DNA of 64,000 bases, taken from positions 4,672,001 through 4,736,000 of the forward strand of contig OZ242318.1 in NCBI GenBank assembly GCA_965208105.1, read 5' to 3'. The translations under genes were made by a program, and so were the position numbers. Below the pieces are notes generated by a model that saw nothing but the letters and a program-made list of their open reading frames with translations, had not been told where the DNA came from and did no database searches. Position 1 is the stretch's first letter. Every line of letters begins with the position of its first letter. This stretch comes from Candidatus Latescibacterota bacterium. GTDB lineage: Bacteria > Latescibacterota > UBA2968 > UBA8231. Below are positions 4,299 through 51,533 of the stretch, piece after piece.

Positions 4299-6248
4299 TC
4301 AAGGAAGAATGAGTTCCAGTTTGGTTTTCACGTCGTGATTGTCGGGAGCGAGCTCCAGGGCCCGGGTCCAGTGGGTTCTGGCCTCGTTGTCCTTGCCCAA
4401 AGCCTGGGCGACATCGCCGGCGTGGTCCAGGATGATCGCCTGATCCCCGGCCGCTTCAACGGTTGGATCGCCGCGGCCCAATATCTCCAGGGCGCGCCCC
4501 AGGTAGTGTTGAGCGTGATCCAGTTGCCCGAGGCGAAAGTAAGCCCAGCCAAGGCTGTCCAGAAAAGCGCTGTTTCCCGGATCCAGAGATACTGCCTTCG
4601 ACAACATCACCACGGCTTCTTCCAGGTGAATGCCCTTGTCGGCGTACATATACCCTAGATAATTCAGCGAATAGGCATCGTCGGGATCTGCTTCGAGCAA
4701 TCGCTCGAAGGTTTCGATCGCTCGGTCGAAGTAGGCTTCCCTGCCTGTCTGGCGCGCCGCCTGTTCGAAGCAGCTTCCCAAATAGAACAGTCTGTGGGTG
4801 TCCTCCGGGTCCAGATCGGTAGCCAGGATGAGCTTTTCAATTGCCTCTTCCCACAATTCCAACTTCTCCAGAGCCAGGCCCCAGTGCAGGTAGAGGTCGC
4901 CGTTGAGTGAGTCCAGTTTCACGGCGTTCCGGTACTGCAGGATTGCCTCCTCCCACTGTTGCCGGCGGCCCAGGACTATGCCCCTGCGCATGTGGAGTCC
5001 GGCATGGCCGGAATTCAACTCCAGAGCGCGGTCGTAGACGGCGATTGCCTCTGTCCAATTCTTCTGCTTTTCATGGGCGAATCCCCAGTAGAGATAGAAG
5101 TCAATCTCGTCGGGATGGACCTCGAGACCTCTGCGATAGATGTCGATTGCCCGCTCAAATCGGTCTGCCCTCTCCATGGCTGCACCCCAGAAAAGATATA
5201 TGCTGCTGCTGTCTGGCATGGCCGCCGCGGCTTCAGAGAGAATTTCGTTGGCGCGGTCGTATTCCTCCCGGACAATGAAATAGCGGGCGAGATCCAACCA
5301 TTCCTCGGCGGTGCCTGGCTGCATTTCGACTATATATTCGAAGACAGCGGCCGCCTCGGCATATCTCTGGGCTTCGGACAGCGCCAGTCCCAAACGGTAG
5401 AGAAAGCGGGGTCCCTCCTCGGCGAGAACGGTGTTCAGTTCCTCGCCCGCGGCGACCAGAACCGCCAGTTTGTGAAAGAAGACAGGGCTCTCGGGCAGAA
5501 TGCGGGCTGCCTGGCGGTAATACATCAATCCAGCTTCCCTTCGTCCTCCGGAGATCTGGACCGCAGCCATTCCCAACCATGCGCTTTCGATCTCGGGATG
5601 GGATTCGAGCACCCTCTCGAAAATATCTTCAGCCTTCTTGCGGTCACCGATGTGCAGATAGACATAGCCTATGTTTACCCTGACTCCGGGAGGGGCATCG
5701 TCCCTTTTCAAGACGGGCTCCAGCAGCGGAGATATGCGCCTGATCTGACCGGTCTTCAGGTAGAAATCGGTGAGGTGAAAGTAGAGTTGCCAGTTCGTCG
5801 GCTCGTACGGAAGCAGTCTCTCCAGCTCCCTGGCAGCTCGGTGTTCGTCCTCTCTATCCTGGAAGATCCGGAAAAGCAGATAGCGCAACTTGGTGCGGCC
5901 GGGATCGAGCTTCAGGGCCTTGCGGGCAAAAATTTCGGCCATCCGTCCATCGTCGATCTTTTCGTAGGCGAGGGCAAGCCGTTCGTGGATCGTCGGGGAA
6001 GAGGGATCGAGGTCGGCGGCGCTGCGCAAGGCCACGATCGCGCCGTGATAATTCTTCTGGGCTTCGAATACCTTGGCCTTGACGAAGTAGCGCGTGGCCT
6101 GCTTGCGCTGGACCTCGGCAGTATCCTCCTGGCGGTCGGGCCTCCATGGCAATGGACCTCCGCATCCCCAGGTGAGGAAAACAGCGCAGATGCCGGCGTG
6201 GAGAAGGGGAAGACAGCCGGTGAAATATTTCCATCCAACCGTGATCAA
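4299..6248 (-). CDS. Tetratricopeptide repeat lipoprotein
   Basis: TTG start overlapping the dppC stop (TTGA); lipobox LTWGC; many TPRs including LNYLGY..AD and AFLDSLGWAYFRLG. Confidence 0.85.
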   Translation of the reverse strand: MITVGWKYFTGCLPLLHAGICAVFLTWGCGGPLPWRPDRQEDTAEVQRKQATRYFVKAKVFEAQKNYHGAIVALRSAADLDPSSPTIHERLALAYEKIDDGRMAEIFARKALKLDPGRTKLRYLLFRIFQDREDEHRAARELERLLPYEPTNWQLYFHLTDFYLKTGQIRRISPLLEPVLKRDDAPPGVRVNIGYVYLHIGDRKKAEDIFERVLESHPEIESAWLGMAAVQISGGRREAGLMYYRQAARILPESPVFFHKLAVLVAAGEELNTVLAEEGPRFLYRLGLALSEAQRYAEAAAVFEYIVEMQPGTAEEWLDLARYFIVREEYDRANEILSEAAAAMPDSSSIYLFWGAAMERADRFERAIDIYRRGLEVHPDEIDFYLYWGFAHEKQKNWTEAIAVYDRALELNSGHAGLHMRRGIVLGRRQQWEEAILQYRNAVKLDSLNGDLYLHWGLALEKLELWEEAIEKLILATDLDPEDTHRLFYLGSCFEQAARQTGREAYFDRAIETFERLLEADPDDAYSLNYLGYMYADKGIHLEEAVVMLSKAVSLDPGNSAFLDSLGWAYFRLGQLDHAQHYLGRALEILGRGDPTVEAAGDQAIILDHAGDVAQALGKDNEARTHWTRALELAPDNHDVKTKLELILP

Positions 6249-7078
6249 AGGGCCGCCCTCCTGGGATCCAGGGCGTCCCGGAGTCCATCTCCCAGCAAGT
6301 TGAGGCCCAGGACCACGATGAAAATCGCCAATCCCGGGAAGGCCATCACCCATGGCGCCTTGAGCAGGAGTTCACGGCCTCCCGAGAGCATGGATCCCCA
6401 TTCGGGGGTTGGAGGCTGGGCGCCCAGCCCCAGGAAGCTGAGTCCGGCGGCGTCCAGTATGGCGGTTCCCAGGCTCAAGGTGGACTGCACGACGAGGGGC
6501 GCCGCACAATTGGGCAGCACATTGTGCCAGATGACGTGCAGGTCTCCAGCGCCGAGGGCCCGAGCTGCTTCGATATAGGCCTTCTCGCGGATGGACAGCA
6601 CCGTGGCGCGGACGAGGCGGGCGTACTGGGGCACCATGACAATGCTCACAGCCACCATGACGTTCTCGATTCCCGGCCCGATCATGGCCACTACGGCCAG
6701 GGCGAGAAGAATGCTGGGGAAGGCAAGCACCATGTCCATGAGCCTCATTACCGAAGCGTCGACCAGGCCGCCGCGGTAACCGGCAACCAGCCCCAGCATG
6801 GTGCCCACGGTCAAGGCGATGGAGATGGAGACCAGGCCTATCCGAAGTGAGATGCGCGCGCCGTAGATGATGCGGCTCAGGATGTCGCGACCGAAGTCGT
6901 CGGTGCCCAGAGGGTTGGCCAGCGAGGGTGTCTGCAGGCGCTGGTAGGGATGTTGTTCCAGCGGATGATGTGGAGCGAGAACAGGGGCAAGCACGGCCGC
7001 CATTACCAGTGCGAGCACAATCCCGGCCCCGAAAAGCGCGAGGCGGTGCCGCTTGAAATGGCGCAATAGATCGAGCAT
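6245..7078 (-). CDS. dppC: Peptide ABC transporter permease DppC/OppC
   Basis: LGTDDFGRDILSRIIYGARISL, YIEAARALGA, LSFLGLGAQPPTPEWG, GDGLRDALDPR. Confidence 0.92.
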   Translation of the reverse strand: MLDLLRHFKRHRLALFGAGIVLALVMAAVLAPVLAPHHPLEQHPYQRLQTPSLANPLGTDDFGRDILSRIIYGARISLRIGLVSISIALTVGTMLGLVAGYRGGLVDASVMRLMDMVLAFPSILLALAVVAMIGPGIENVMVAVSIVMVPQYARLVRATVLSIREKAYIEAARALGAGDLHVIWHNVLPNCAAPLVVQSTLSLGTAILDAAGLSFLGLGAQPPTPEWGSMLSGGRELLLKAPWVMAFPGLAIFIVVLGLNLLGDGLRDALDPRRAAL

Positions 7079-9493: not shown

Positions 9494-11669
9494 CTTCCAG
9501 ATTTTCGGGGTTGCTCCTCAGACCATCCCCGGTTTCCTCCAGTCCACCTGTCTCACCTCGCAAGCGCTGCATCAAGGTCGTGTAGCGCAATGCCACTGCA
9601 TCGTTTTCCACAGCCAGGTTGAGCGCCTTTTGGGTTCCAACCACCACGATCATCTCTTTTGCCCGCGTGAATGCGGTATATAGAAGGTTGCGCTGCAACA
9701 TCACATAGTGCTGCGTAGTCAGCGGCATGACCACCACTGGAAACTCTGAACCCTGTGCCCTGTGAGTGCTGATCGCGTAGGCCAGGGTCATTTCGTCCAG
9801 TTCGGCAAAATCGTAGCTCAGAGAACTGTCAAATTTTATCCTCATCTGCTGTTCATCCATGTCCAACCCGGCGATTATTCCCGTATCGCCGTTGAAAACT
9901 CCCTTGTCGTAGTTGTTCTTGACCTGCATCACTTTGTCTCCCACCCGAAGCTCCACGCCGCCATGATTGTAGGACTGACCATGGGGGTTGAGACGCTGTT
10001 GGAGGCGCAAGTTCAAATTGACAGCCCCGGTCTCACCACGGTACATGGGGGTAATCACCTGAATGTCGCGCATGGGGTCATGGCCGCGGCCCGGCAACCG
10101 GCGGGCGCACAAATCCTCGATCAGTTCCGCGGACCGGGCGGGGTCTTCCTCTTCCAGGAAGAAAAAGTCCGATGCCTCCCTGTTGCTGATTGAGGGCGGC
10201 TCTCCGCGGTTTACCCGGTGAGCGTTGAGAACAATCTGGCTCTCCCGGGCCTGCCGGAAGATTTCTGTCAATCGCACCACTGGCACGGTTCCGGAGGCGA
10301 TAATGTCCCTGAGCACGTTGCCCGGACCCACCGAGGGCAGCTGGTCTATGTCTCCAACAATCACCAGATGGGCGGTATCGGGAATGGCCTGCAGCAGAGA
10401 GTGCATCAAGGCTACGTCGATCATGGAGGCTTCGTCGACTATCAGAGCATCCACCTCCAGACGGTTGTCGTAGTTCTTTCGGAATGCTCTCTCGGCGGGG
10501 ATGAACTCGAGGAGGCGGTGGATGGTCCTGGCCTCCCTGCCCGTGGCCTCGGCCAGGCGCTTGGCCGCCCTACCAGTAGGCGAGCACAGGGCGACCTCAA
10601 GGCCTTTGGACTCGAACAAGGCGAGGATTTCTCTTGTTATGGTGGTCTTTCCCGTGCCCGGGCCACCAGTCAGCACGATTACCTTTTTCCTGGCCGCCAG
10701 GCCTATGGCCTCCCACTGGCTGGGAGACAATTGCAGGCCTTCTCCACTACCGGTGTGGCGGGGGGAATCGAGCTTGACCGCGGCCGGTGTCCGCAGCAGG
10801 CGCTTGAGGGAGGAGGCCAATCCTACCTCGGCGTAGTAGAGCGGTGGCAGGTAATAGCGCAAGTCCTCTTTGGAGATTCCGTCGTCGGCTCGCAGGGTTT
10901 CCAGTGCGGGAGGAAAGAGTTCCGCGTTGACCCCCAGAATGTCCTTGCACTGTTGCATCAGGACCTCAACCGGCAGAAATACGTGGCCTTCCTCGGATCC
11001 CCGGACGAGCAGGTATCGCATTCCCGCCTGAATCCTCTCCGGGGCGTCCGCGGCCAGACCCATGTTCCTGGCGATCCGGTCGGCGATCCGGAAGCCGATT
11101 CCAACAATATCGCGCTCCAGGCGGTATGGATTCTCCCGAACCCGTTGGATCGCTTCCTGGCCGTACTGTTTGAATATCTTGACTGCATAGCCGGTGGTGA
11201 TCCCATGCGACTGCAGAAAAACCATCACGTCCTTGATCCGGCGCTGGTCTTTCCAGGCCCGTGCGATCAGGTCCACCCGGCTTTTGCCCAGTTTGTCAAC
11301 CTCGAGAAGGCGGTATGGGTCGGCATCGATGATCTCCAGGGTCTGGGCGCCGAAATGCGCCACGATGCGCCTGGCGGAAACGGGTCCTATGCCCTTGATC
11401 AGGCCTGATCCCAGGTACTTCTGAATGCCTTCAAGAGTCGAGGGGTGGACCTGCCTGTAGCTCTCGATTTTGAATTGGCGGCCGTACTTTGGATGGCTTA
11501 CCCAATCTCCATCTACTTCGATGGTCTCCCCTTCCTTGAGGGCCGCCACCGAGCCCACCACGGTAATCCGTTCCCGCTTGCCCTCGGGTACAAGGCGAGC
11601 GATCATGTACCCGCTTTCCTCGTTGAAATAGGTAATCAGGTCAATACAGCCCTTGATGGATTCGCTCAT
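9474..11669 (-). CDS. recD2: ATP-dependent RecD-like DNA helicase RecD2
   Basis: HPKYGRQF, KGIGP HhH, Walker A GGPGTGKT, VDEASM, GDIDQLPSVGPG, AYAISTHRAQGSEF. Confidence 0.93.
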   Translation of the reverse strand: MSESIKGCIDLITYFNEESGYMIARLVPEGKRERITVVGSVAALKEGETIEVDGDWVSHPKYGRQFKIESYRQVHPSTLEGIQKYLGSGLIKGIGPVSARRIVAHFGAQTLEIIDADPYRLLEVDKLGKSRVDLIARAWKDQRRIKDVMVFLQSHGITTGYAVKIFKQYGQEAIQRVRENPYRLERDIVGIGFRIADRIARNMGLAADAPERIQAGMRYLLVRGSEEGHVFLPVEVLMQQCKDILGVNAELFPPALETLRADDGISKEDLRYYLPPLYYAEVGLASSLKRLLRTPAAVKLDSPRHTGSGEGLQLSPSQWEAIGLAARKKVIVLTGGPGTGKTTITREILALFESKGLEVALCSPTGRAAKRLAEATGREARTIHRLLEFIPAERAFRKNYDNRLEVDALIVDEASMIDVALMHSLLQAIPDTAHLVIVGDIDQLPSVGPGNVLRDIIASGTVPVVRLTEIFRQARESQIVLNAHRVNRGEPPSISNREASDFFFLEEEDPARSAELIEDLCARRLPGRGHDPMRDIQVITPMYRGETGAVNLNLRLQQRLNPHGQSYNHGGVELRVGDKVMQVKNNYDKGVFNGDTGIIAGLDMDEQQMRIKFDSSLSYDFAELDEMTLAYAISTHRAQGSEFPVVVMPLTTQHYVMLQRNLLYTAFTRAKEMIVVVGTQKALNLAVENDAVALRYTTLMQRLRGETGGLEETGDGLRSNPENLEVTAADA

Positions 11670-11699
11670 CGGTTTCCTGGGGATTTTTACAATGAAAAT

Positions 11700-12302
11700 T
11701 CAGGCCGAGAAGATTCCTTCAATCCACAGGGTCAGCCCCAGAATCAATCCCGTCGCCACCCCACCCAAAAGGGCTCCCGCCGCCACCTGTGCAGCAGTAT
11801 GGTAGCCGAGGCGCAGGCGGGCCCATGCCACCAGCGGCAGTGCCGGGGCAAGCGGCCACATGCCCGTTCCTCCGGCAAGCCAGAGGATCAGGAGTCCACC
11901 TCCCACTCCCGTTGCATGGATGCTGATCTTCCAATGTCTGTTGATCATCCATACCAGAAACGTGTTGCAGAAGAACGCACATCCCGCACCGATCAGGAGA
12001 CCAGGTGCGCCTAGCAGGAACAGCAATAAACACCCGAGGAAGTAGCAGATTGCTCCCAGCAGCAGCAGCCGCCCTCTTTGATTCCCATCACTTGGGTAGA
12101 GGTGGTCAATGTAGCCGGTTCGCCGCAGACGTACCAGTATGATTCCGGGAAGGATGGAAAAGAGCAGTACTCCCGCGCTACCCGCCGTCCATGCAGCTTT
12201 ATCAAGCCAGGTCAAGCCTGCGAACACCACCAGCCCGACCATGGATGGATTCAACGCGTGGGAAATCAGGTGGGCCAGTTTGTCGAGTCGATGGGGATGC
12301 AT
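11700..12302 (-). CDS. PAP2-superfamily membrane protein
   Basis: About 6 TM segments; WKISIH and WARLRLGYHT PAP2-like motifs. Confidence 0.7.
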   Translation of the reverse strand: MHPHRLDKLAHLISHALNPSMVGLVVFAGLTWLDKAAWTAGSAGVLLFSILPGIILVRLRRTGYIDHLYPSDGNQRGRLLLLGAICYFLGCLLLFLLGAPGLLIGAGCAFFCNTFLVWMINRHWKISIHATGVGGGLLILWLAGGTGMWPLAPALPLVAWARLRLGYHTAAQVAAGALLGGVATGLILGLTLWIEGIFSA

Positions 12303-42486: not shown

Positions 42487-42645
42487 GTGCGGTGGGGCGG
42501 GACATCCCCGGGGTCCGGGAGGTGTTACCCGGAGAGGCCGGGTGTGTGTCGTGCCTTACACATGGGTGGGGAAGGCAGGGGGGCGTAGAACGACTCTCAG
42601 AGGGATGCGGGTATGGAAAGACGGCATTCACCCTGCCCAATCGAT

Positions 42646-43053
42646 GGTCAAGTCCTGAGATTTCTGCAAAAGTGATGGCAGCACGAAGCCCCCTTCCTAC
42701 CCGGCCACCGCCCTCCTTTGGGTAGCCGGTTCGATCTTCAACTCCTGGTATAAGAGATCCAGCTGGGCCCTCTCCGTCGCCGTGATCCCGATGCGCTGCC
42801 AGGTACCGGCCGCCCGGATCAGGGTAGCGTGGACGAGCTTGAGACAGCTCTTCTCGTTGAAGAAGCGGGGTATGGTTTTGGTAACCCGTCGCTCTTCCAC
42901 GAAACTGCGTTCAATCAGGTTGGTGGTACGTACGTATTTTCGATGGCGCCAGGGCACGCGCAGGTGGTTGAGAAGGGCCTCCAGATCCTCGCTGAGCACG
43001 GCGCACAGGCTTGGACAATCCTCAGGCAGCTTCGTTGCCCGGGTCCGAACCAA
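42646..43053 (-). mobile_element. IS256-family remnant: transposase C-terminal fragment plus one terminal inverted repeat
   Basis: RTTNLIER..EERR.TK.I..F.NEKSCLKL motif; GGTCAAGTCCTGAGATTTCTGCAAAAGT (42646-42673) resembles IS256 ends; no N-terminal part present. Confidence 0.8.
42697..43053 (-). pseudogene. Truncated IS256 (mutator-type) transposase
   Basis: Only about 110 C-terminal codons of a roughly 400-aa transposase. Confidence 0.8.
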
Positions 43054-43236
43054 GCAGGATCCAGATCACCTTGTTCACTCTAATAATCTCAGAGGCCGGT
43101 GGTTAGCACCCTCGAATGCAGCCCGAATGGATTCATCTCCAACTCTCCGGAGAATTGGGCGAAGCAAGATAAAAGGAAGAAAAGATGATATGAGGTAATG
43201 AGAGGGTGGATGGCCTTCGGTCCCATTGCCTGCTGA

Positions 43237-43252
43237 GGGCACAATTCTTGCT
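43237..43252 (+). promoter_or_regulatory. Sigma54 (-24/-12) promoter upstream of the precursor gene
   Basis: GGGCACAATTCTTGCT versus consensus TGGCACGNNNNTTGCW; exact GG-N10-GC spacing. Confidence 0.65.
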
Positions 43253-43292
43253 GAAAAAGGGAAGCACCTCGTTTCCCCGCTCGGCGGGATCT

Positions 43293-43791
43293 ATCCCCAA
43301 GTGCCTCGGAGGCCTTTCCACTCAACCAAGGAGAGAAAAATGATCCAACTACAGAAGCGAACCCTGCAACCCTACGGACATAAGCTCGGTGTCACGGCAT
43401 ACGGCTTCGAGTTCGATGTGGATGGCTTCGTGGGTGACGCCAAGAAACTGGTAAAGGACCTTGCGAAAGGTAAAATTGAGGTCGGGAACATCAGGACAGG
43501 AGAGTCAAGAACTACATTCACAATCAACGCGGGGATCGGGCGCAGGAGCAGCAGCGATCCGGTGCATGACTATGGCGACAGCAACTGGGTCGAGTACAGC
43601 ATTGGCCCAATGAGCATCACCCATGTCAGCGCCCCCAACAGCGGCGGCAGTGGTAGCAGTGGTAGCAGTTCGCCATCGGGAGGTTATGGTTTCTCACCGA
43701 GCGACTACTACGATCGTTAATGTTTTCCAGGTTCTTCCCGGAATTGTTGCCAGATTGAAATGAACGGAAGGTCTCCGAGGCCACCGGGGAT
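43293..43791 (+). repeat. Imperfect inverted repeat pair (43293-43319 / 43766-43791) enclosing the precursor ORF
   Basis: GCCTCGGAGGCCTT pairs with AAGGTCTCCGAGGC (one G-U); ATCCCC pairs with GGGGAT. Confidence 0.7.
43340..43720 (+). CDS. Putative RiPP/bacteriocin precursor, 126 aa, CLI_3235/PapA-like leader
   Basis: AAGGAG RBS; MIQLQKR...VTAY|G leader pattern; Ser/Gly-rich tail; first gene of the cluster. Confidence 0.7.
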   Translation: MIQLQKRTLQPYGHKLGVTAYGFEFDVDGFVGDAKKLVKDLAKGKIEVGNIRTGESRTTFTINAGIGRRSSSDPVHDYGDSNWVEYSIGPMSITHVSAPNSGGSGSSGSSSPSGGYGFSPSDYYDR

Positions 43792-43834
43792 TCGGTTAAC
43801 ACTCTGCCCATAACCGTCCGGGATCGAGGCAAAT

Positions 43835-44557
43835 ATGCGTAACTCAACCGCCACACCCTGGCCCGCGAGCACGGATATAGGGTTCGTAAGAGGCCTGATC
43901 ATCGCGGCCTTCTTTCTGGTAAGCCTTCCCCTCCTCGAGGTGATCGTTGTCAACTTGGCTGGCACAGGATATATCATCGATACCCTGGAAGGAGCGGCGA
44001 TTATCTTGCCGGTCCATATTTTCAGCCTTTTTATGGTGGGATTCGTCGTGCAGAGGTGGGGAGGTATTCACTTCAAATCCCTGTTCCGCCGCCTTCCTAA
44101 CTTGAGGGAAGGCATAAAATGGGGTTCGGTCGGCGCGCTACTCGGATCAACGATGTTTTTTAAGGCGCTGAATTCCGGGTACCGGTTCGACAATCCGGAG
44201 GCCAACATCATGGTTTTGGTTCTGCTTGTAAAAGTCTCCCTGATCACCCCACTTGTCGAGGAAATCAAATATCGCGCGGTTTTCTACGCCGCCTTGCGCA
44301 AGAAGGGCAGGATCATCGCCTATGCGGTTTCGTCGCTGGTGTTTACCCTCGCCCACGCCCCGTCCTACGGCGATCTGTTCTTGCACGGATCCATGGGTCT
44401 TTCCGGTGGACAGATCGCTGGGCTCCTGCTCGCAGGCCTGGTCTTCGCTCATATCTATGAAACCACCGGCAAGCTGCTGGTCTGTGTCCTGTGCCACGCC
44501 ATGATCAACGGCATGGAGGTAATCGGCTACCTGGCAGGCTATTTGTTCGATGTGTGA
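43835..44557 (+). CDS. CPBP/CAAX (Abi) intramembrane metalloprotease, possible immunity protein
   Basis: PLVEEIKYR (EExxxR), FTLAH, HAMIN motifs; multiple TMs. Confidence 0.88.
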   Translation: MRNSTATPWPASTDIGFVRGLIIAAFFLVSLPLLEVIVVNLAGTGYIIDTLEGAAIILPVHIFSLFMVGFVVQRWGGIHFKSLFRRLPNLREGIKWGSVGALLGSTMFFKALNSGYRFDNPEANIMVLVLLVKVSLITPLVEEIKYRAVFYAALRKKGRIIAYAVSSLVFTLAHAPSYGDLFLHGSMGLSGGQIAGLLLAGLVFAHIYETTGKLLVCVLCHAMINGMEVIGYLAGYLFDV

Positions 44558-44786
44558 AGCTTCCTTATTGTGGGATCCCACAATCTTCGGCGGTATCCTG
44601 TCTCCTCCCTCCAAATTGGGCATCCTCGCCTGACCTCGATTCCGGATCGCTGAGTCAAACCGAGACCCCAGGTCTTACCTAGCGGGATTACCCGACGGGG
44701 ACCAGACCGCGTGAAGTGTCGGGTATAGAATTTGCCGCTTTCTGCTCAACTCCAATCGAATCTACCGGGTGCCCTGGTACGTGTCT

Positions 44787-46502
44787 ATGAACCAAATCCT
44801 GCAGATTGTTCGACTCCTGCGGCCCTACTGGCGCTTCATTGCACAATCTCTGCTGGTAGGAGTCATGCTGACCTTCCTGAGTTTACCGGGGCCATTTATC
44901 ACCAAGCTCCTGATTGACGAAGTTTTCCCTCACAGAGATTACTCCTTGCTCTATTTCGTCCTGATCATGGGTGCGGTTTTCGCGGCGTTCACGGGGTTGA
45001 CCAGCTTCATGAGCGGCTATTTCAGTCAATGCGTAAGTACGAAAATGAGCTTTGATTTCGAGACGGATTTCTACAGCCATATCCAGTCCCTGGATTTCAG
45101 TTTTTTCGACCAGAGGGAGACAGGGGAAATCATGGCCAGGTTCGGAGACATGCAAAGTTCCATATTCAGCATGATTAGGATTGTAAATACCCTGGTAATG
45201 AATTGTCTGCAGTTGATGATATTTCCTCTCATTCTCTTCTACATCAACTGGAAGTTGGCTTTGATAAGTCTGGCAGTACTGCCCTTCGATACCCTCCTGG
45301 TGGCAATCACCAAGAAACATATCCGCAATCTGTCGAAGCGGATTGCCGAGCGTTCTGCCGAGATGTCGGCAAAAACATTCGAATCGCTGTCGGGGATTCG
45401 AACTGTCCAGGCGCTAGGTGTGGAGAGGATCTTTTTCAACAAGATTTTTGAAATCTTCAAGGAAGTGTCGAATCTCCGGCTCAAATTGTCCCTTGTGCAA
45501 AACGGTTCGGGATTTGCCGCGAATCTATTCAAAGCGGCGGGGAGTATGGCCTATGGCTGGTATGGATGGACCCAGATTTTACAGGGAAATTTGTCGCTGG
45601 GAAGCTTCATGGCGTTTTCCGGGTATGTCGGATTTCTCTACGGGCCCATAGAAAACCTGATTGGAATTCTCCCCCTTCTCGAGACAACGAAGGTTCACCT
45701 CAATCGTTTTTTTGAGATCTATAATTTGCGTCCGGCGATTCAGAATCGTCTGAATATGCCCGTTCTGCAACGCGTGCAAGGGGAAATCGAGTTCAGCGAA
45801 GTAAGTTTCTCCTACGATGAGCGCCAAAGGATTCTCCATCGGGTCAACCTGGAAATCCCCCCACGTACCATGATCGCCCTCGTAGGCAGGAGCGGATCCG
45901 GGAAATCCACTCTGGCCAAGCTGATTCCAAGGTTCTACGACCCCGATGAAGGGCAGGTTCGCATAGATGGAAAGGATATCCAGAAATTCCAGCTCAACTC
46001 GCTGCGCCGGCAGGTTGGGTTTTCCATGCAGGGAACCCCCCTTTTCCAGGGGAGTATTCTGGATAACCTGACCTTCGGAAGGAACATTCCAGTGCAGGAC
46101 GTGGAAGATGCGGCTCGATCAGCCTATATCCACGATTTCGTGAATTCCTTGGCGGATGGCTACGATACCCTGGTGGGCGAGCAGGGGGCCAAGTTGTCGG
46201 AAGGACAGAAACAGCGCATCGCTCTTGCCCGTGTTTGGTTGCTTGATGTCCCAATTCTGATACTGGACGAACCCACCGCGGCTCTGGACCTGGAATCAGA
46301 ATTTTTCATACAGGAAGCCCTCAAAAGGGTACGGAAAAATCGAACAGTCGTCATAATCGCACACCGGCTCTCGACCATCCAAAGCGCAGACGAGATAGTT
46401 GTACTGGATGATGGCAGGATATCCGAGAGGGGAACCCACGGGGAGTTGTTGCAAAACGGCGAAGGGTACTCTCAGCTCTTCAGCCGAATGGCAAGTATTT
46501 GA
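44787..46502 (+). CDS. ABC exporter (TMD plus NBD), no C39 peptidase domain
   Basis: 6-TM domain; GRSGSGKST, LSEGQKQR, ILILDEPT, IAHRLST. Confidence 0.92.
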   Translation: MNQILQIVRLLRPYWRFIAQSLLVGVMLTFLSLPGPFITKLLIDEVFPHRDYSLLYFVLIMGAVFAAFTGLTSFMSGYFSQCVSTKMSFDFETDFYSHIQSLDFSFFDQRETGEIMARFGDMQSSIFSMIRIVNTLVMNCLQLMIFPLILFYINWKLALISLAVLPFDTLLVAITKKHIRNLSKRIAERSAEMSAKTFESLSGIRTVQALGVERIFFNKIFEIFKEVSNLRLKLSLVQNGSGFAANLFKAAGSMAYGWYGWTQILQGNLSLGSFMAFSGYVGFLYGPIENLIGILPLLETTKVHLNRFFEIYNLRPAIQNRLNMPVLQRVQGEIEFSEVSFSYDERQRILHRVNLEIPPRTMIALVGRSGSGKSTLAKLIPRFYDPDEGQVRIDGKDIQKFQLNSLRRQVGFSMQGTPLFQGSILDNLTFGRNIPVQDVEDAARSAYIHDFVNSLADGYDTLVGEQGAKLSEGQKQRIALARVWLLDVPILILDEPTAALDLESEFFIQEALKRVRKNRTVVIIAHRLSTIQSADEIVVLDDGRISERGTHGELLQNGEGYSQLFSRMASI

Positions 46503-46538
46503 ACTGAAGGGAGGAAAGAAAAAATCGAAAGAATCAGT

Positions 46539-48536
46539 TTGAGTCGTCTGACTGGCCGCGATGTCAAGGTCGCGATTGTGGACAGCGGCATTGATGCTTC
46601 GCACCCGAAAGTCGGTTTGGTAGCTGGAGGACTGGCGCTGTGGTCCGCCCCGAATGGGGGAACTGCCTCGGGAGGGGATTGGTCGGACTGCACCGGCCAT
46701 GGAACAGCCTGCGCCGGTATTGTCCGCAAGAAAGCTCCGGAATCCGAAATGTACAGCGTCCGCATTTTCGACGAAACCTTGTCGACCGATGGCACATCAC
46801 TAGTGGCTGCTCTGGAATGGACGATTTCAAAAGAAATGGACGTGGTGAATTTGAGCCTGGGAAGCACCGGCCTGAGCCAAAGGGAAGACCTGAGGGCAGT
46901 CTGTCGTCAGGCGGCAAAGGCCGGAATTGTCCTTGTTGCAGCCGAGCACAATGCGGGCAGAGAAAGCTATCCGGCCGTGTTTCCGGAAGTAATAGGAGTC
47001 AGTGGAGGATGGGTTCAGGGGGCCTACGGCTACTACTACCGTTCGGAAGAGGCCATCGAATGCGTGGCCAGGGGCAACCACCAGCGCGTATGCTGGTTGA
47101 ACCGAGGTGAAATCATGATCGAGGGGACGAGCTTCGCCGCAGCCCATATTTCGGGGATTGTATGCTTGATTCGCGAAGCATTACCCGGGGCTACGGTGGA
47201 GAAAGTGCGCGAGGTTCTGCAGGCAAACGCTCTGCCTGAAATTTCCAACCATAGCGCCGGTGTGGGACAATCTTCGCCACCGCCTGCTCAGCGGAAGCTC
47301 GTTCAGGCTTCCCGGTCAGAGGCCAAATCTGCCATCAGGTGGATCCGGAAGGCGGCAATCTATCCATTCAACAAGGAGATGCATGCCCTGGTTCGATATC
47401 GAGACTTGCTCAGCTTTGAACTGGTTGGCGTCGCCGATCCGGTAGGAAAGGGGCTGGTAGGCAAGGACGCCGGGGAAGCCATGGGGATTTCTTCTGCGGG
47501 CATCAGAATTCAGCCGAGGCTCTCCTCTGCCCTTCGGGGGGCCGACACCCTTATTCTCGGCTACGTCGACCAACTCAGCCGCATCGGCAAAAAGGACATG
47601 TTGCGCGAGGCGGTCCGCCTCGCTTTGGATCAAGGCTGCCACGTCTTCAGTTTCGTCTCCCTTCCTCGAGACGTCTACGCGGACCTCCATGATCTCGCGG
47701 CGGGAAAAGGATTGCGCCTCACCTATCCATCCGTCGATTACGAGGAGGTCCGGGATGCCCTGGTCTCCGGTCAGAAATCCAGCCCCGTCGACGTTCCGGT
47801 GGTAGGGGTGTTCGGAACCAGCTCTCAACAGGGAAAATTCACCCTGCAACTGGCCCTGCGCCGCCGCCTCCTGCGCCTGGGATACAAGGTCGGTCAGATT
47901 GGCACCGAACATCACTCAGCACTTTTCGGCATGGATTTCGCATTTCCCATGGGGTATGCTTCACCTCTGGATTTGCCAATCCAGTGGCATGTACCCTATC
48001 TGGACTACAAAATGCGGCAGATATGTGGGCAACGAAGGCCCGACCTCATTCTGGTCGGTTCGCAGTCCGGTACCATCCCCTATGACGTGCATGAGCACGG
48101 GGCTCATTCCATGGCCTCGGTCTCGTTCCTTCTGGGCACCAAGCCCGATGCATGTATATTGGTGGTCAACAGCATCGATGCGGACCGCTACGTTGAGGAC
48201 AGCATGGATGCCATCCGCGCCCTGGCCAAGGCCCCCACTTTGCTTCTGGCCATGAGCGACAAGAAAAAGCATATCATGGCGGCGTACGGACGTAGTTGGG
48301 TTGCGCCGCGCCAGATGAGGGGGGCGGAAATCGCGGCAAAGCTGGGCTACCTGGAAGACAGGTTCGGCTTGCCAGCCATTGAAATCTCCTCCGTTCAGGG
48401 CCAGCGAATAGTTGCTGCGGAGGTCCTTCGGTATTTTGCTTCCTCGAAAAAGGCGGGTTGTAAGCGGGGCCTCACCCGGATTCACCGGCCTCGTTGGAAA
48501 AGAGATGAAACAACCCTAAAGTCAAGGTTTCCTTAA
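46539..48536 (+). CDS. Cytoplasmic S8 subtilase fused to a DUF1611/TIGR04066-like P-loop domain
   Basis: Triad VAIVDSG / GHGTACAG / GTSFAA, no signal peptide; C-terminal VPVVGVFGTSSQQGKFTLQL..GYKVGQIGTE..ILVGSQSG. Confidence 0.8.
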   Translation: MSRLTGRDVKVAIVDSGIDASHPKVGLVAGGLALWSAPNGGTASGGDWSDCTGHGTACAGIVRKKAPESEMYSVRIFDETLSTDGTSLVAALEWTISKEMDVVNLSLGSTGLSQREDLRAVCRQAAKAGIVLVAAEHNAGRESYPAVFPEVIGVSGGWVQGAYGYYYRSEEAIECVARGNHQRVCWLNRGEIMIEGTSFAAAHISGIVCLIREALPGATVEKVREVLQANALPEISNHSAGVGQSSPPPAQRKLVQASRSEAKSAIRWIRKAAIYPFNKEMHALVRYRDLLSFELVGVADPVGKGLVGKDAGEAMGISSAGIRIQPRLSSALRGADTLILGYVDQLSRIGKKDMLREAVRLALDQGCHVFSFVSLPRDVYADLHDLAAGKGLRLTYPSVDYEEVRDALVSGQKSSPVDVPVVGVFGTSSQQGKFTLQLALRRRLLRLGYKVGQIGTEHHSALFGMDFAFPMGYASPLDLPIQWHVPYLDYKMRQICGQRRPDLILVGSQSGTIPYDVHEHGAHSMASVSFLLGTKPDACILVVNSIDADRYVEDSMDAIRALAKAPTLLLAMSDKKKHIMAAYGRSWVAPRQMRGAEIAAKLGYLEDRFGLPAIEISSVQGQRIVAAEVLRYFASSKKAGCKRGLTRIHRPRWKRDETTLKSRFP

Positions 48537-48548
48537 AGGGAGGGGTAA

Positions 48549-48836
48549 ATGGGAAAAGAAGGCACAGAGTATCGCATCAAGCGCACCATCGTCCGTACCC
48601 TGAATCTCGACATCGAGCCCGATGAAATCGGTGACGATGATTTGTTGTTCGGCGGCGACCTCGGTCTGCACTCCATGGCGGCGATGGAAATCATTGTCGG
48701 ACTGGAGGAGGAATTCAGCTTTGAGGTTTCGGACGATGATCTGAGAGTCGAGTTACTGAACAGTGTTCGCTCGATGAGCGAATACATTGAATCAACCCTT
48801 TCAGATTCCTCCGCCATGCGGGTGAAGGACCCTTGA
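48549..48836 (+). CDS. Stand-alone acyl carrier protein
   Basis: GGGAGG RBS; acidic 95 aa; LFGGDLGLHS (Ppant Ser), LEEEF. Confidence 0.85.
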   Translation: MGKEGTEYRIKRTIVRTLNLDIEPDEIGDDDLLFGGDLGLHSMAAMEIIVGLEEEFSFEVSDDDLRVELLNSVRSMSEYIESTLSDSSAMRVKDP

Positions 48837-48839
48837 GCC

Positions 48840-51533
48840 ATGATACCGGATATAAAGCTATTTTACGAGCCTGGATCGAGAGATTGTGCAGAAGACCTGG
48901 CGGTCTCCGTAGCCTCCTGGAAGAGGAGAAAGCACGAGCTGATGTTCGCTGAGTCATGGGGGTTTGGTTTTGACCCACCTGGTTCGGGCGGTGGAGAAAG
49001 AATTGGAGATGGGATCGATCCTGCAATGGGCGACCGGTGGGGATTGCTGGAGCGCCATCACGGAATAAAATGGTCGGTCGGCAAAAACCATTCTGATGAA
49101 GAACTCGCTGCTCTCTTGCAGGGGGAAATTGAAGGAGGTTTTCCGGTCGCATTGAGCCTGAGCGTGGGTGAAACGAGGAAAGAATGCAGCGCCAAGGGCG
49201 ACAGGAGTTCGCCCCTCCCCTATATCCTGGCCGTGGGGTTTGATTACAGTGCCCGGACCCTGTCTTATCTGCGATACAACACCCAATGTCCCGGTGAAGG
49301 AAACGGCGAAATAGAGCATATCTCCCTCGGTGACTTCGAGGATTGGGATGGTGGTTACATGACCGTCCGACTGACGGGAAAGGACAAGTGGCAAGAGGCC
49401 GACGGGGTTGAAGTTATTGAAAGAGCCTTGGCAAGCGTCGGCAACTTCGATGAATGCAGAAGCACCGTTTCAATCCACCAATTTGCCGATGCATTGGATC
49501 GGGGCCTTGATATAGAGGCTGAAATTGCAGGCTGCACCAACTATCACCGGGTTCCATTGTTTTACAATCTGATGCGGGTTGGCCATGGGCGCTTTCAGTT
49601 CTCCAGATTGCTGCGCCTTCTGAGCATCACTGGCCACTTCCCGGAGCTTGGGGAAGCTGCTGGCCGCTTGGAGTCCCTGGGAAGACGGTGGAATCTGGTC
49701 CGCAGCCTGTTGATGAAATTGGGGATGAGGGCGAGCGATGTTCAATTGCCGGGTCGAATCAGCACGAGAGTCAGAGAACTGGCGGCGGCTGAGGAGGAAT
49801 TGGCCTCGGTCCTGCGGGAATTCGGTTTTAGGAAGAGAAGGAACCCCTTCTCGAAAATTCGTAAAAATTCTCTCGTCCCGGAACCATCCTCTTCAGGAAT
49901 TGAAATGTATCCCCGTCCTGCACTGAAGCATCCATATGTGGGCCCTCGGGACGGGAAGGAGCGCCGCCTCGTCCATATCTGGCAGGAAGTCCTTGGCGTC
50001 CGAAAGGTTGGTGTTCACGACGACTTCTTTGAGTTGGGCGGGGACTCCTTGCTGGGGATCCATGTTGTTGCCCTTGTCCGTAAGGCAGGGTTGCAACTGA
50101 CTACCGGACAGCTTTTCGAACGCCGGACAATCGCAGGATTGGCCCAGGTTGAAGGGAAGGGGACCTGGATTTGCGCTGAGCAGGATCTGGTGACAGGTCC
50201 TGTACCCATCACACCCGGTGCGCGCCGGTTCCTGGAGCATATCGGTCCCGGCAGACACCACTACAACGTGTCTGTTCTCCTGGAGACGCCAGACGGCTTC
50301 GACCCCGGACGAATGGACCAGGCCGTGCGCCATGTGGTCGCCCATCACGATGCCCTCCGATTTCGTTATTTCCATGACGGCAGGACGGGATGGCGGCAGT
50401 ACATGGCCGGGCTTGATGGGCCAAATCATTTCACCATTACAGATCTGAGCGGCATTCCCAGGGCGGGGCAAAGTGCCGCAATTGAAGAGGCTGCGGCCGA
50501 AGTACAGGCCAGCCTGAACCTGTCCCGGGGACCCTTATGCCGGGTGACCTTTTTCGATCTTGGGGATCACCGTCGCGGGCGCCTGTTATTTGTCGTACAC
50601 CACATTGCCGTGGATGGGATGTGCGAGCGCTTTCCCCTGGAGGACCTTCTTTTGGTCTACCAGCAGCTTTGCGCAGGCGATGAGGTCCGGATGCCTCCAA
50701 AGACAACCTCATTCAAGCGATGGGCAATTGGTCTGGAGAAATACGCCCGTTCGGAGGCCTTGAAGAAGGAGGCAGATTATTGGCTGAGCTTGCCCTGGGA
50801 TCAGGTGCGTCCCTTTCCCCTGGATAATGCAGAAGGAGTGAACAGCCGAGCCTCTTCATCCTTCATAGAAATTACCATATCCCCAGAAAAGACGCACACC
50901 TTACTGTCAGTTCCCAGGAAGTCGACCACCAGGGTCCACGAGGTGTTGCTGACAGCGCTCGCTCTGGCCCTCTCACGATGGACCGGATCGGATACCGTAT
51001 TGGTAGACCTGATGCATCATGGACGCGAGCCGCTTTTCGACCACATGGACCTGTCTCGCACGGTGGGCAATTTCATCTCCCATGTTCCGGTAGTACTGAA
51101 ACTGGGGAACGCATCCCCTGCTTCACAGGCGGTGGAAATGGTCAAAGAGCAACTTCGCAAAATTCCCAGGGGAGGCATCGGGTATGGTTTGCTGCGGTAT
51201 AGGTGTGGGGATACTGAGGAAAACGAAAAATTGCGAAGCTGCCCAAAGGCCGAGATCAGCTTCAACTGCCGGATTCACGGGGCTCGGACATTGCCGGCTA
51301 ATCAGGGTCATCTGGCCGCTGGATCTTTTCAACCAGCCATGGAATCCTGCGGTCCCCCTATCGCCCAGGATGCAATCAGGGGCCATCTGATCGGATTCAG
51401 AGCCGACATCATTAACGGCCGGGCAAACCTCGGCTTCACCTACAGCGCGGCGTTGCAAAGGGGATCTACGGTCGAAGCTCTGACCCATGGCTGTATGGAG
51501 GAGTTGGACTCGCTCCTCGGCCGTCTTCATTGA
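48840..51533 (+). CDS. BtrH_N-like domain, PCP and epimerization-type condensation domain fusion (no A domain)
   Basis: DCAEDL..ELMFAESWGFGF BtrH_N-like; DDFFELGGDSL PCP; HHIAVDG, PKTTSF, HGRE..LSRTVG, VKEQLRKIPRGGIGYGLLRY E-domain motifs. Confidence 0.8.
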   Translation: MIPDIKLFYEPGSRDCAEDLAVSVASWKRRKHELMFAESWGFGFDPPGSGGGERIGDGIDPAMGDRWGLLERHHGIKWSVGKNHSDEELAALLQGEIEGGFPVALSLSVGETRKECSAKGDRSSPLPYILAVGFDYSARTLSYLRYNTQCPGEGNGEIEHISLGDFEDWDGGYMTVRLTGKDKWQEADGVEVIERALASVGNFDECRSTVSIHQFADALDRGLDIEAEIAGCTNYHRVPLFYNLMRVGHGRFQFSRLLRLLSITGHFPELGEAAGRLESLGRRWNLVRSLLMKLGMRASDVQLPGRISTRVRELAAAEEELASVLREFGFRKRRNPFSKIRKNSLVPEPSSSGIEMYPRPALKHPYVGPRDGKERRLVHIWQEVLGVRKVGVHDDFFELGGDSLLGIHVVALVRKAGLQLTTGQLFERRTIAGLAQVEGKGTWICAEQDLVTGPVPITPGARRFLEHIGPGRHHYNVSVLLETPDGFDPGRMDQAVRHVVAHHDALRFRYFHDGRTGWRQYMAGLDGPNHFTITDLSGIPRAGQSAAIEEAAAEVQASLNLSRGPLCRVTFFDLGDHRRGRLLFVVHHIAVDGMCERFPLEDLLLVYQQLCAGDEVRMPPKTTSFKRWAIGLEKYARSEALKKEADYWLSLPWDQVRPFPLDNAEGVNSRASSSFIEITISPEKTHTLLSVPRKSTTRVHEVLLTALALALSRWTGSDTVLVDLMHHGREPLFDHMDLSRTVGNFISHVPVVLKLGNASPASQAVEMVKEQLRKIPRGGIGYGLLRYRCGDTEENEKLRSCPKAEISFNCRIHGARTLPANQGHLAAGSFQPAMESCGPPIAQDAIRGHLIGFRADIINGRANLGFTYSAALQRGSTVEALTHGCMEELDSLLGRLH

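Follow-up and report, generated by a model that had tools for sequence, protein, structure and literature searches.

A small gene at the head of a low-GC island

We analyzed a 64,000-nucleotide stretch of DNA from Candidatus Latescibacterota bacterium (assembly GCA_965208105.1, contig OZ242318.1, positions 4,672,001 to 4,736,000; hereafter the window, in whose coordinates positions are given), focusing on a small open reading frame (ORF) and the gene island that it opens. The GC fraction is 0.46-0.59 across 43000-51499 and 0.60-0.70 on both flanks. The island is one same-strand set of six genes, all intact and assigned, of which the small ORF (43340..43720, forward strand) is the first. This ORF starts with ATG and encodes 126 amino acids, beginning with MIQLQKRTLQPYGHKLGVTAY followed by Gly. 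Residues 1-21 (43340..43402) form the putative leader with a proposed protease site at V18-x-A20-Y21, and residues 22-126 together with the stop codon (43403..43720) form the core. The whole protein, and thus also the 105-residue core after Tyr21, contains no Cys. The product contains the segment GFEFDVDGFVGDAKKLVKDLAKG at the start of the core and a Ser/Gly-rich tail, and it ends in PSDYYDR. An earlier sequence-only reading of this DNA had described the frame, the 21-residue leader, the Cys-free stretch, the amphipathic-looking core start and the tail, and all of these are present as it described them.

The ORF is preceded, 7 nt 5′ of its ATG, by the ribosome-binding site AAGGAG. This site lies in a 5′ untranslated stretch (43290..43339, forward strand) that is about 92% identical to positions 9951-10000 of L002, a locus on a Latescibacterota chromosome. 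L002 carries a syntenic copy of the ORF (60% protein identity) that sits in the same interval, bordered by an rlpA-like gene and pcm, and has the same genes behind it. The start of the ORF was set at MIQLQ because the remote homologues begin there. Relative to L002, 5′ indels break the frame beyond the conserved 50 nt, indicating that 43290..43339 is not coding. A word-indexed search (E ≤ 0.01, 154 candidates) yielded nine homologues of 60-95% identity and conserved length, and a profile search of 1.84 billion representatives gave nine matches at E ≤ 0.001. The latter included the remote homologues P0130 (E = 1e-28) and P0133 (E = 4.8e-7), both of which keep the leader while their cores drift. 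In P0134, the likeness to the profile is confined to the first 25 positions. Three other matches, P0131, P0132 and P0135, were dropped, being long repetitive proteins matched via the Ser/Gly-rich tail.

Residues 1-21 are nearly invariant across the nine homologues, and N-terminal conservation is strongest at M1-T8, P11, Y12, L16, V18, A20 and Y21. The core also has conserved blocks, namely FEFD.DGF, SRTT, HDYGDSNWVEY, GP.S.TH.SAP and PSDYY. A 9.9-kb metagenome contig that is about 93% alike preserves the frame of the ORF through a +1/-1 pair 8 nt apart; it also carries an in-frame AAG insertion (+3), and its stop codon is changed from TAA to TGA. We conclude that the ORF is a genuine gene rather than a chance reading frame. 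Neither Pfam nor NCBIfam contained a match to the whole protein, and residues 1-27 scanned against NCBIfam also gave none even at E ≤ 10, a threshold at which the HMMER filters can discard very weak matches.

Two further observations concern the DNA around the gene. Whereas the ORF proteins of the window and L002 are only 60% identical, the two sequences agree at about 92% of the 50 nt that precede the start codon (43290-43339; L002 9951-10000). This stretch, which contains the near-palindrome GCCTCGGAGGC, may have a regulatory function. Promoter, terminator and hairpin searches in 42600-44900 and in the spacer 43715-43840 yielded no signal stronger than in shuffled sequences. Metagenome runs of sponge, coral-reef and marine origin, belonging to 11 studies, contain DNA near-identical or related to window positions 43100-44600. 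The shares of sampled words were 0.19-0.47 outside the best-holding sample, and the three runs that were checked all cover the stretch.

Other genes of the island

At the upstream edge of the island lies a fragment of a Mutator-family transposase (42697..43053, reverse strand; PF00872, E = 8e-9), which matches only the last 76 positions of the profile. Downstream of the small ORF, the forward strand encodes a CPBP (Rce1-like) intramembrane glutamic protease of 240 residues (43835..44557; PF02517, E = 1.1e-18), in which the EEIKYR and H motifs were seen. It is followed by a 577-residue ABC exporter (44769..46502) with fused permease and ATPase (ABC_membrane and ABC_tran domains). Alignments of this exporter to bacteriocin-exporter models begin at about model position 140, past the peptidase domain; it thus has no N-terminal C39 domain. 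The next gene (46539..48536) encodes a 665-residue fusion of an S8 subtilase with a DUF1611/TIGR04066 domain (PF00082, PF07755, QhpE-like NF049966 and TIGR04066). A 95-residue acyl carrier protein (ACP; 48549..48836; PF00550, E = 2.9e-11) follows.

The last gene (48840..51533) encodes an 897-residue protein with PP-binding and condensation domains (E = 2e-62), laid out as a BtrH-like part (residues 1-360), a peptidyl carrier protein (PCP) domain (376-436) and a condensation domain (462-809) with the motif HHIAVDG. The first 367 residues had no match in the libraries scanned. However, the N-terminal part is 26% identical (E = 2e-8) to the product of L047:9814-10920, a 369-residue protein with BtrH_N and DUF4872 domains that is itself a neighbour of a fusion gene. 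An alignment of ten homologues was too divergent to place the BtrH-like catalytic residues, with Cys16 standing opposite a Cys in 5 of the 10.

No radical SAM (rSAM) gene is present among the six assigned genes of the island, as the sequence-only reading had noted. In this genome, matches to the FlmE/OhkG-type rSAM occur only at 0.52 and 1.46 Mb, outside the window. In L002, a different transposase-like fragment (11244-12014) lies between the CPBP and ABC genes. The clusters of the window and L002 are both lower in GC than their flanks, yet they occupy the same chromosomal site.

The S8-DUF1611 fusion enzyme

The fusion protein consists of an S8 subtilase half (residues 1-250) and a DUF1611/TIGR04066 half (residues 271-620). 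Residues 4-231 align to positions 21-245 of mature subtilisin, and neither a signal peptide nor a propeptide is present. The subtilase half is therefore expected to work in the cytoplasm. Across 35 fusion sequences, little or no variation is seen in the catalytic residues D15, H54 and S198 or in the P-loop G426-T435. Among curated models, the S8 half fits QhpE best (NF049966; 146 bits, below the cutoff of 165) and the C-terminal half fits TIGR04066 best (120.9-121.9 bits, E = 3e-35, below the cutoff of 200).

A structural model of residues 271-665 (predicted local distance difference test, pLDDT, 83; predicted template modeling score, pTM, 0.83) is similar to two DUF1611 structures, 2g0t and 2obn, as well as to 7xrj, an entry deposited under the name of the N-acetyltransferase DgcN (E = 2.4e-10; template modeling (TM) score 0.66 by target). 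According to this model, the DUF1611 half has the fold of DgcN. A complex prediction of the fusion (35-sequence alignment) with precursor residues 1-60 (10 sequences) gave scores of 0.25, 0.31 and 0.17 against a mark of 0.32, without controls, and is evidence neither way.

The fusion is widespread. A search with the DUF1611 part returned 864 proteins at E ≤ 1e-3 among 8000 scored candidates. For the 120 of these that were listed, identity over that part ranges from 61 to 100%; almost all contain both Pfam domains, and Latescibacteria, Gemmatimonadetes and Spirochaetales are among their source names. Within the phylum, 87 of 168 genomes have a fusion match (E ≤ 1e-40), with a maximum of seven matches per genome. 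The genome of the window has a second copy at 0.52 Mb, 31% identical to that of the window. Some fusion-gene matches contain one or two in-frame stops (TGA, TAG or TAA), for example G089:C1:5045019-5046929, G138:C1:3975757-3977667 and one on G123:C613; these may be decaying paralogues or assembly errors.

A leader shared by unrelated cores beside fusion genes

The sequence-only reading had proposed that small ORFs be collected beside homologous S8 fusions. We did so with 40 fetched fusion genes, each with about 7 kb on either side, to which the window and L002 were added, giving 42 loci; the set is thus defined by the fusion gene itself. Neighbours were counted by tblastn with proteins of the window and a few other loci (E ≤ 1e-5, at least 60 residues). 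An ACP gene follows the fusion gene in 33 of the 42 loci, a BtrH-like gene is present in 25 and a CPBP gene in 13, and most loci have an ABC exporter. The BtrH-PCP-condensation architecture is limited to the window, L002 and L056. Only six loci have an rSAM gene, leaving 36 without one within 7 kb. The rSAM-less form is therefore the majority among the fusion loci of the phylum and not a derived oddity. The sequence-only reading had put forward a leader "grafted" onto a protein-sized cargo, for which no evidence was found. In L033, L034, L035 and L036 (positions 5260-6950 of the oriented maps and the part after the ACP gene), the CPBP gene is replaced by genes for Yip1-domain membrane proteins, an AhpC/redoxin-like protein, a GT28-type glycosyltransferase and a MauE/DoxX protein; the accessory set thus varies by subgroup.

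At least one small same-strand ORF with a common leader was found in 32 of the 42 loci. The leader has the form M-x-x-L-x-K, a variable stretch and [V/I]-x-A-Y, often followed by x-x-E, and is 19-24 residues long. The cores behind it comprise 29-118 residues and are mutually unrelated; when 11,122 six-frame ORFs from the 42 loci were searched with a hidden Markov model (HMM) of the core family of the window, the window and L002 alone were retrieved. Counts per position were made on 32 seed leaders from 28 loci, selected by a loose pattern and by eye. Numbered from the Tyr, P4 holds V in 22 leaders, I in nine and A in the remaining one; Ala occupies P2 in 27, and Tyr occupies P1 in 30. The position +3 (P3′), which the anchoring pattern left unconstrained, is E in 19. 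The Tyr lies at residues 19-24, with a median of 21.

A leave-out leader HMM was built from 29 seeds, without those of the window, L002 and L052 (the second fusion locus of the same genome), and run on the 11,122 ORFs. At E < 0.5 it retrieved 35 ORFs, each encoded on the same strand as the fusion gene; the left-out L052 peptide is among them. Five of its matches, in the four additional loci L037, L046 (twice), L058 and L060, had not been used in training and are not part of the position counts. Several loci have two or three leader ORFs (L051, 400-1400; L050, 4947-6929; L061, 9931-13541; L066, two ORFs). In L051, three are arranged in tandem with hydrophobic cores and four Cys each, and in L050 five small ORFs are consecutive, one of which matches the leader pattern. 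By eye, ORFs of the metagenome loci L082 (E = 0.63) and L074 (E = 7) also resemble leader ORFs.

None of 30 leader-bearing ORFs and homologues matched a curated precursor family in NCBIfam; curated matches were limited to two rSAM-linked ORFs, one to FlmA and one, weakly, to Clo7bot. A long Cys-free core like that of the window is a recurring trait, since 9 of 37 listed precursors have Cys-free cores; the rSAM-linked cores are short and Cys-rich. The leader type occurs in loci with rSAM (6 of 42) as well as in those without (36 of 42), and both kinds share the leader, the fusion, mostly an ABC exporter and, in 33 loci, the ACP. This distribution fits a leader that serves the S8/acylation machinery rather than the rSAM, as the sequence-only reading had supposed.

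Placement of the window ORF in the leader family

The window ORF lies 3.2 kb upstream of the S8-DUF1611 gene, on the same strand and in the same operon. Its leader (MIQLQK…V18-T-A-Y21-G-F-E24) fits each position of the motif, namely M1, L4, K6, V18, A20, Y21 and E24, and its length of 21 residues fits as well. In the six-frame translation of the genome (8.17 million residues), the strict motif M..L.K.{6,16}[VIL].AY has three occurrences: in the window ORF, in a 52-residue ORF upstream of an rSAM gene and the second fusion gene, and inside a long unrelated ORF. With an HMM of three leaders whose cores are unrelated (L069, L053 and L056), the window ORF ranked first among 82,902 ORFs of the genome (E = 1.8), and with the L069 leader alone it ranked second (E = 3.4). 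Weighing these comparisons of sequence against its weak score with the leave-out HMM (given below), we regard the window ORF as very probably a divergent but genuine member of the leader family.

Comparison with known systems

The nearest described systems are clusters of the CLI_3235/CcpM type. In Paenibacillus polymyxa SacP23, such a cluster is described as comprising an rSAM (TIGR04068), TIGR04066, an ACP-related protein (TIGR04069), an S8 protease and an ABC transporter, with a precursor of 61 residues divided into a predicted 19-residue leader and a 42-residue Cys-rich core (PMC10731318). The window resembles this cluster in that genes for TIGR04066/DUF1611, an S8 protease, a carrier protein and an ABC exporter accompany a small ORF with a predicted leader, which is about 19-21 residues long in both. 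The window differs in that S8 and TIGR04066 form one polypeptide, the rSAM is missing, the core has 105 Cys-free residues instead of 42 Cys-rich ones, and a BtrH-like-PCP-condensation protein and a CPBP protease are added. In addition, the precursor of the window has no TIGR04065 match, and its TIGR04066 match is below the cutoff (121 vs 200 bits).

The sequence-only reading had called the leader ranthipeptide-type and related it to the CLI_3235-family precursors (TIGR04065). This kinship was not supported. Neither the ORF nor its residues 1-27 matched the TIGR04065 HMM, even at E ≤ 10. The family has a short Cys-rich core and a co-located rSAM/SPASM maturase (TIGR04068); here, the core has 105 residues and no Cys, there is no such maturase in the island, and no rSAM match was found in the window. 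Ranthipeptides need Cys for their rSAM cross-links, and the protein is Cys-free. Nor does it resemble double-glycine (class II) bacteriocins, as the exporter has no C39 domain and the leader no GG motif.

A second comparison concerns the "DD(I/V)LF" orphan precursors (FlmA/OhkA) of peptides made by ribosomes and modified after translation (RiPPs), which occur with the FlmE/OhkG rSAM and whose products and cleavage sites are, according to the paper describing them, unknown (PMC12703449). The window ORF does not match the FlmA model (NF052472) and ends in PSDYYDR instead of DD(I/V)LF; compared with those systems, it also has no Cys, and rSAM and arginase are missing. The second fusion locus of the genome, L052 (G000:C1:517475-531367, outside the window), is closer to this family. 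Its precursor, a Cys-rich peptide of 52 residues with the same leader type, ends in GDILF and scores 28.3 bits with FlmA (cutoff 30), and its rSAM matches the FlmE/OhkG model (NF052473) at 378 bits (cutoff 500). The locus further encodes the 31%-identical fusion, a 105-residue ACP-like protein, three ABC-2 permeases and an S41 peptidase. By having a FlmA-like precursor, the leader and the fusion together, L052 links the DD(I/V)LF orphan RiPP family to the fusion enzyme and its leader type.

The S8 half can also be compared with its best curated match. It is similar to QhpE in being a presumably cytoplasmic subtilase with a leader-bearing protein as its putative substrate; it scores below the cutoff, lacks the context of quinohemoprotein amine dehydrogenase genes and is fused to DUF1611. 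QhpE itself is a subtilisin-like protease of the cytoplasm that removes the leader from the QhpC subunit. Goadvionins, selidamides and lipolanthines are RiPPs with short cores that are acylated from a carrier protein or coenzyme A by GNAT-type transferases. In these, a ribosomal core is acylated, sometimes from an ACP, after or during leader removal, and the product of the window may be matured in a similar way. However, the candidate transferases of the window are DgcN-like, BtrH-like or condensation domains and its core is protein-sized. Within leader-guided maturation and export, what stands out here is that a protease is fused to a putative acyltransferase, that no rSAM is present and that the core has the size of a protein and no Cys.

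Proposed maturation of the small protein and alternative explanations

The operon places a small gene, whose leader type is common to unrelated cores beside the same enzymes, upstream of genes for a protease fused to a DgcN-like domain, a carrier protein and an exporter. We consider it probable that the 126-residue product is a leader-guided precursor that undergoes cytoplasmic cleavage at Tyr21 or close by, may be N-acylated from the ACP and is then exported. Binding of the leader, the cleavage site, the modification, the export and the activity of the product are all read from gene content and sequence.

The leader would recruit the precursor to the cytoplasmic S8-DUF1611 fusion, whose subtilase half would cleave at or next to V18-T-A-Y21. 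Classical subtilisins prefer a hydrophobic residue at P4, a small one at P2 and an aromatic one at P1, having a hydrophobic S4 pocket and a large S1 pocket. V18-T-A-Y21 suits this preference, and the cut is therefore proposed there, while the conserved Glu at +3 leaves the exact cleaved bond open. Next, the DgcN-like half, the BtrH-like-PCP-condensation protein or both may move an acyl or aminoacyl group from the adjacent ACP, likely onto the freed amine. Such acylation of the freed amine from a phosphopantetheine-bound donor is suggested by the DgcN-like half and the adjacent ACP, and the main argument for it is that both activities are fused in hundreds of proteins. In the synthesis of butirosin, BtrH takes an aminoacyl group from an ACP and passes it to an amine; a BtrH-like domain that is linked, as here, with PCP and condensation domains might attach or lengthen a group of this type. 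The 105-residue core would then leave the cell via the ABC transporter without a C39 domain. The CPBP protein may act in self-protection or in further processing; proteins of this family are known both as bacteriocin self-protection factors and as maturation proteases.

Several results speak against this proposal. As for the leader, the seeds were picked partly by eye, and many of the loci come from related or the same genomes, so that the counts overstate independence. The strict motif was written after seeing the sequence of the window and fits only 17 of 30 other seeds. The E-values of the two subfamily tests are above 1, and the leave-out HMM of 29 leaders gave the window ORF 3.9-4.7 bits (rank 100 of 82,902, E about 190), while the L002 ORF reached 8.6 bits. 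No ORF of 80 metagenome loci, mostly S8-only relatives or loci with short flanks, matched the leader HMM at E < 0.5. As for the operon, the island contains no adenylation domain or acyl-ACP ligase, and the loading of the ACP and PCP is thus unexplained; an HlyD-type partner, present in many related loci, is also missing from the window. As for the product, the AlphaFold2 model of the small protein shows no confident fold (mean pLDDT 42, pTM 0.28) and gives no hint of an activity, and no similarity of the core hinting at one was found. Its ESM Atlas model (pLDDT 0.34, best feature score 0.81, all TM scores below 0.35) likewise has no nameable fold. Finally, no transcript covering the ORF was found, the sole contig, from one metatranscriptome run (256 nt, about 96% alike), corresponding to 43762-44013, 3′ of the ORF, and so having no bearing on its expression.

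Among the alternatives, the one that survives best is that a secreted protein or bacteriocin is released without modification, the leader being a signal for processing and export only, and that the ACP, DUF1611 and BtrH-PCP-condensation proteins make or modify something else, for instance a lipid or small molecule. In favour of this, the core has the size of a protein, is conserved over its full length and is free of Cys, and the enzyme that would load the carriers is not found in the island; moreover, CPBP genes and ABC exporters are typical beside unmodified bacteriocins. However, the protease is fused to a DgcN-like domain in hundreds of proteins, and an ACP gene comes next in 33 of 42 loci, which is hard to square with an unrelated carrier chemistry. 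We therefore regard this explanation as unlikely.

It is more improbable still that the small protein is not a substrate but an accessory factor, such as an immunity protein, scaffold or regulator, whose likeness to the leaders is a coincidence. The weak score with the general leader HMM would agree with this, as would conservation that spans the whole protein and not the N-terminus alone. Yet conservation is highest at the N-terminus, which agrees with the motif at every position, the Glu at +3 among them, and also in length; the ORF occupies the place of the precursor in the operon and ranks first in the genome with the subfamily HMM, and P0130 and P0133 retain the leader over drifting cores.

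There is a very slim chance that the ORF encodes a true precursor of the ranthipeptide type, on which the rSAM of the second locus at 0.52 Mb acts in trans. That FlmE/OhkG-type enzyme does adjoin a precursor with the same leader type. However, thioether-forming maturases require Cys, which the core does not have; 36 of the 42 related loci have no rSAM within 7 kb; and the two fusion proteins of the genome are only 31% identical. That transposons have damaged the island and the ORF is merely a chance or degenerating frame in it, as the transposase fragment directly upstream and the insertion-sequence fragment in the L002 cluster might suggest, is scarcely credible given its ribosome-binding site, its conservation to remote homologues, the frame-preserving variation in a diverged strain and the six intact genes.

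Implications for the fusion family

Beyond leader-guided maturation of this one protein, a wider possibility, which we consider doubtful, is that S8-DUF1611 fusions, ACPs and BtrH-like partners together make up a large, unrecognised rSAM-free class of systems. In such a class, one polypeptide would cut the [V/I]-x-A-Y leader and cap the new N-terminus with an acyl or aminoacyl group from the ACP; the hypervariable cores, of up to about 120 residues, would become acylated, exported ribosomal natural products; and the window ORF, with its PCP-condensation protein, would represent a ribosomal/non-ribosomal hybrid. In the literature searched, we found no paper on a combination of leader proteolysis with DgcN-type acyl transfer, none on the function of TIGR04066 or DUF1611 in the maturation of peptides or RiPPs, and none on BtrH with RiPPs, OhkG, FlmE, or ranthipeptides with a subtilisin and an acyl carrier. 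To our knowledge, the TIGR04066/DUF1611 and "ACP-related" proteins of CLI_3235-type systems have been without an assigned role since their definition.

If the proposal is correct, these proteins would be given a role, and the fusion enzyme would couple leader proteolysis with DgcN-type acyl transfer. One short leader motif would then index hundreds of uncharacterised gene clusters, of which those found in this analysis belong to Latescibacterota, with Gemmatimonadetes and Spirochaetales names also among the matches, and their products would be far larger than the usual RiPP cores. As the DNA recurs in sponge, coral-reef and marine metagenomes, these products may matter in symbiont communities.

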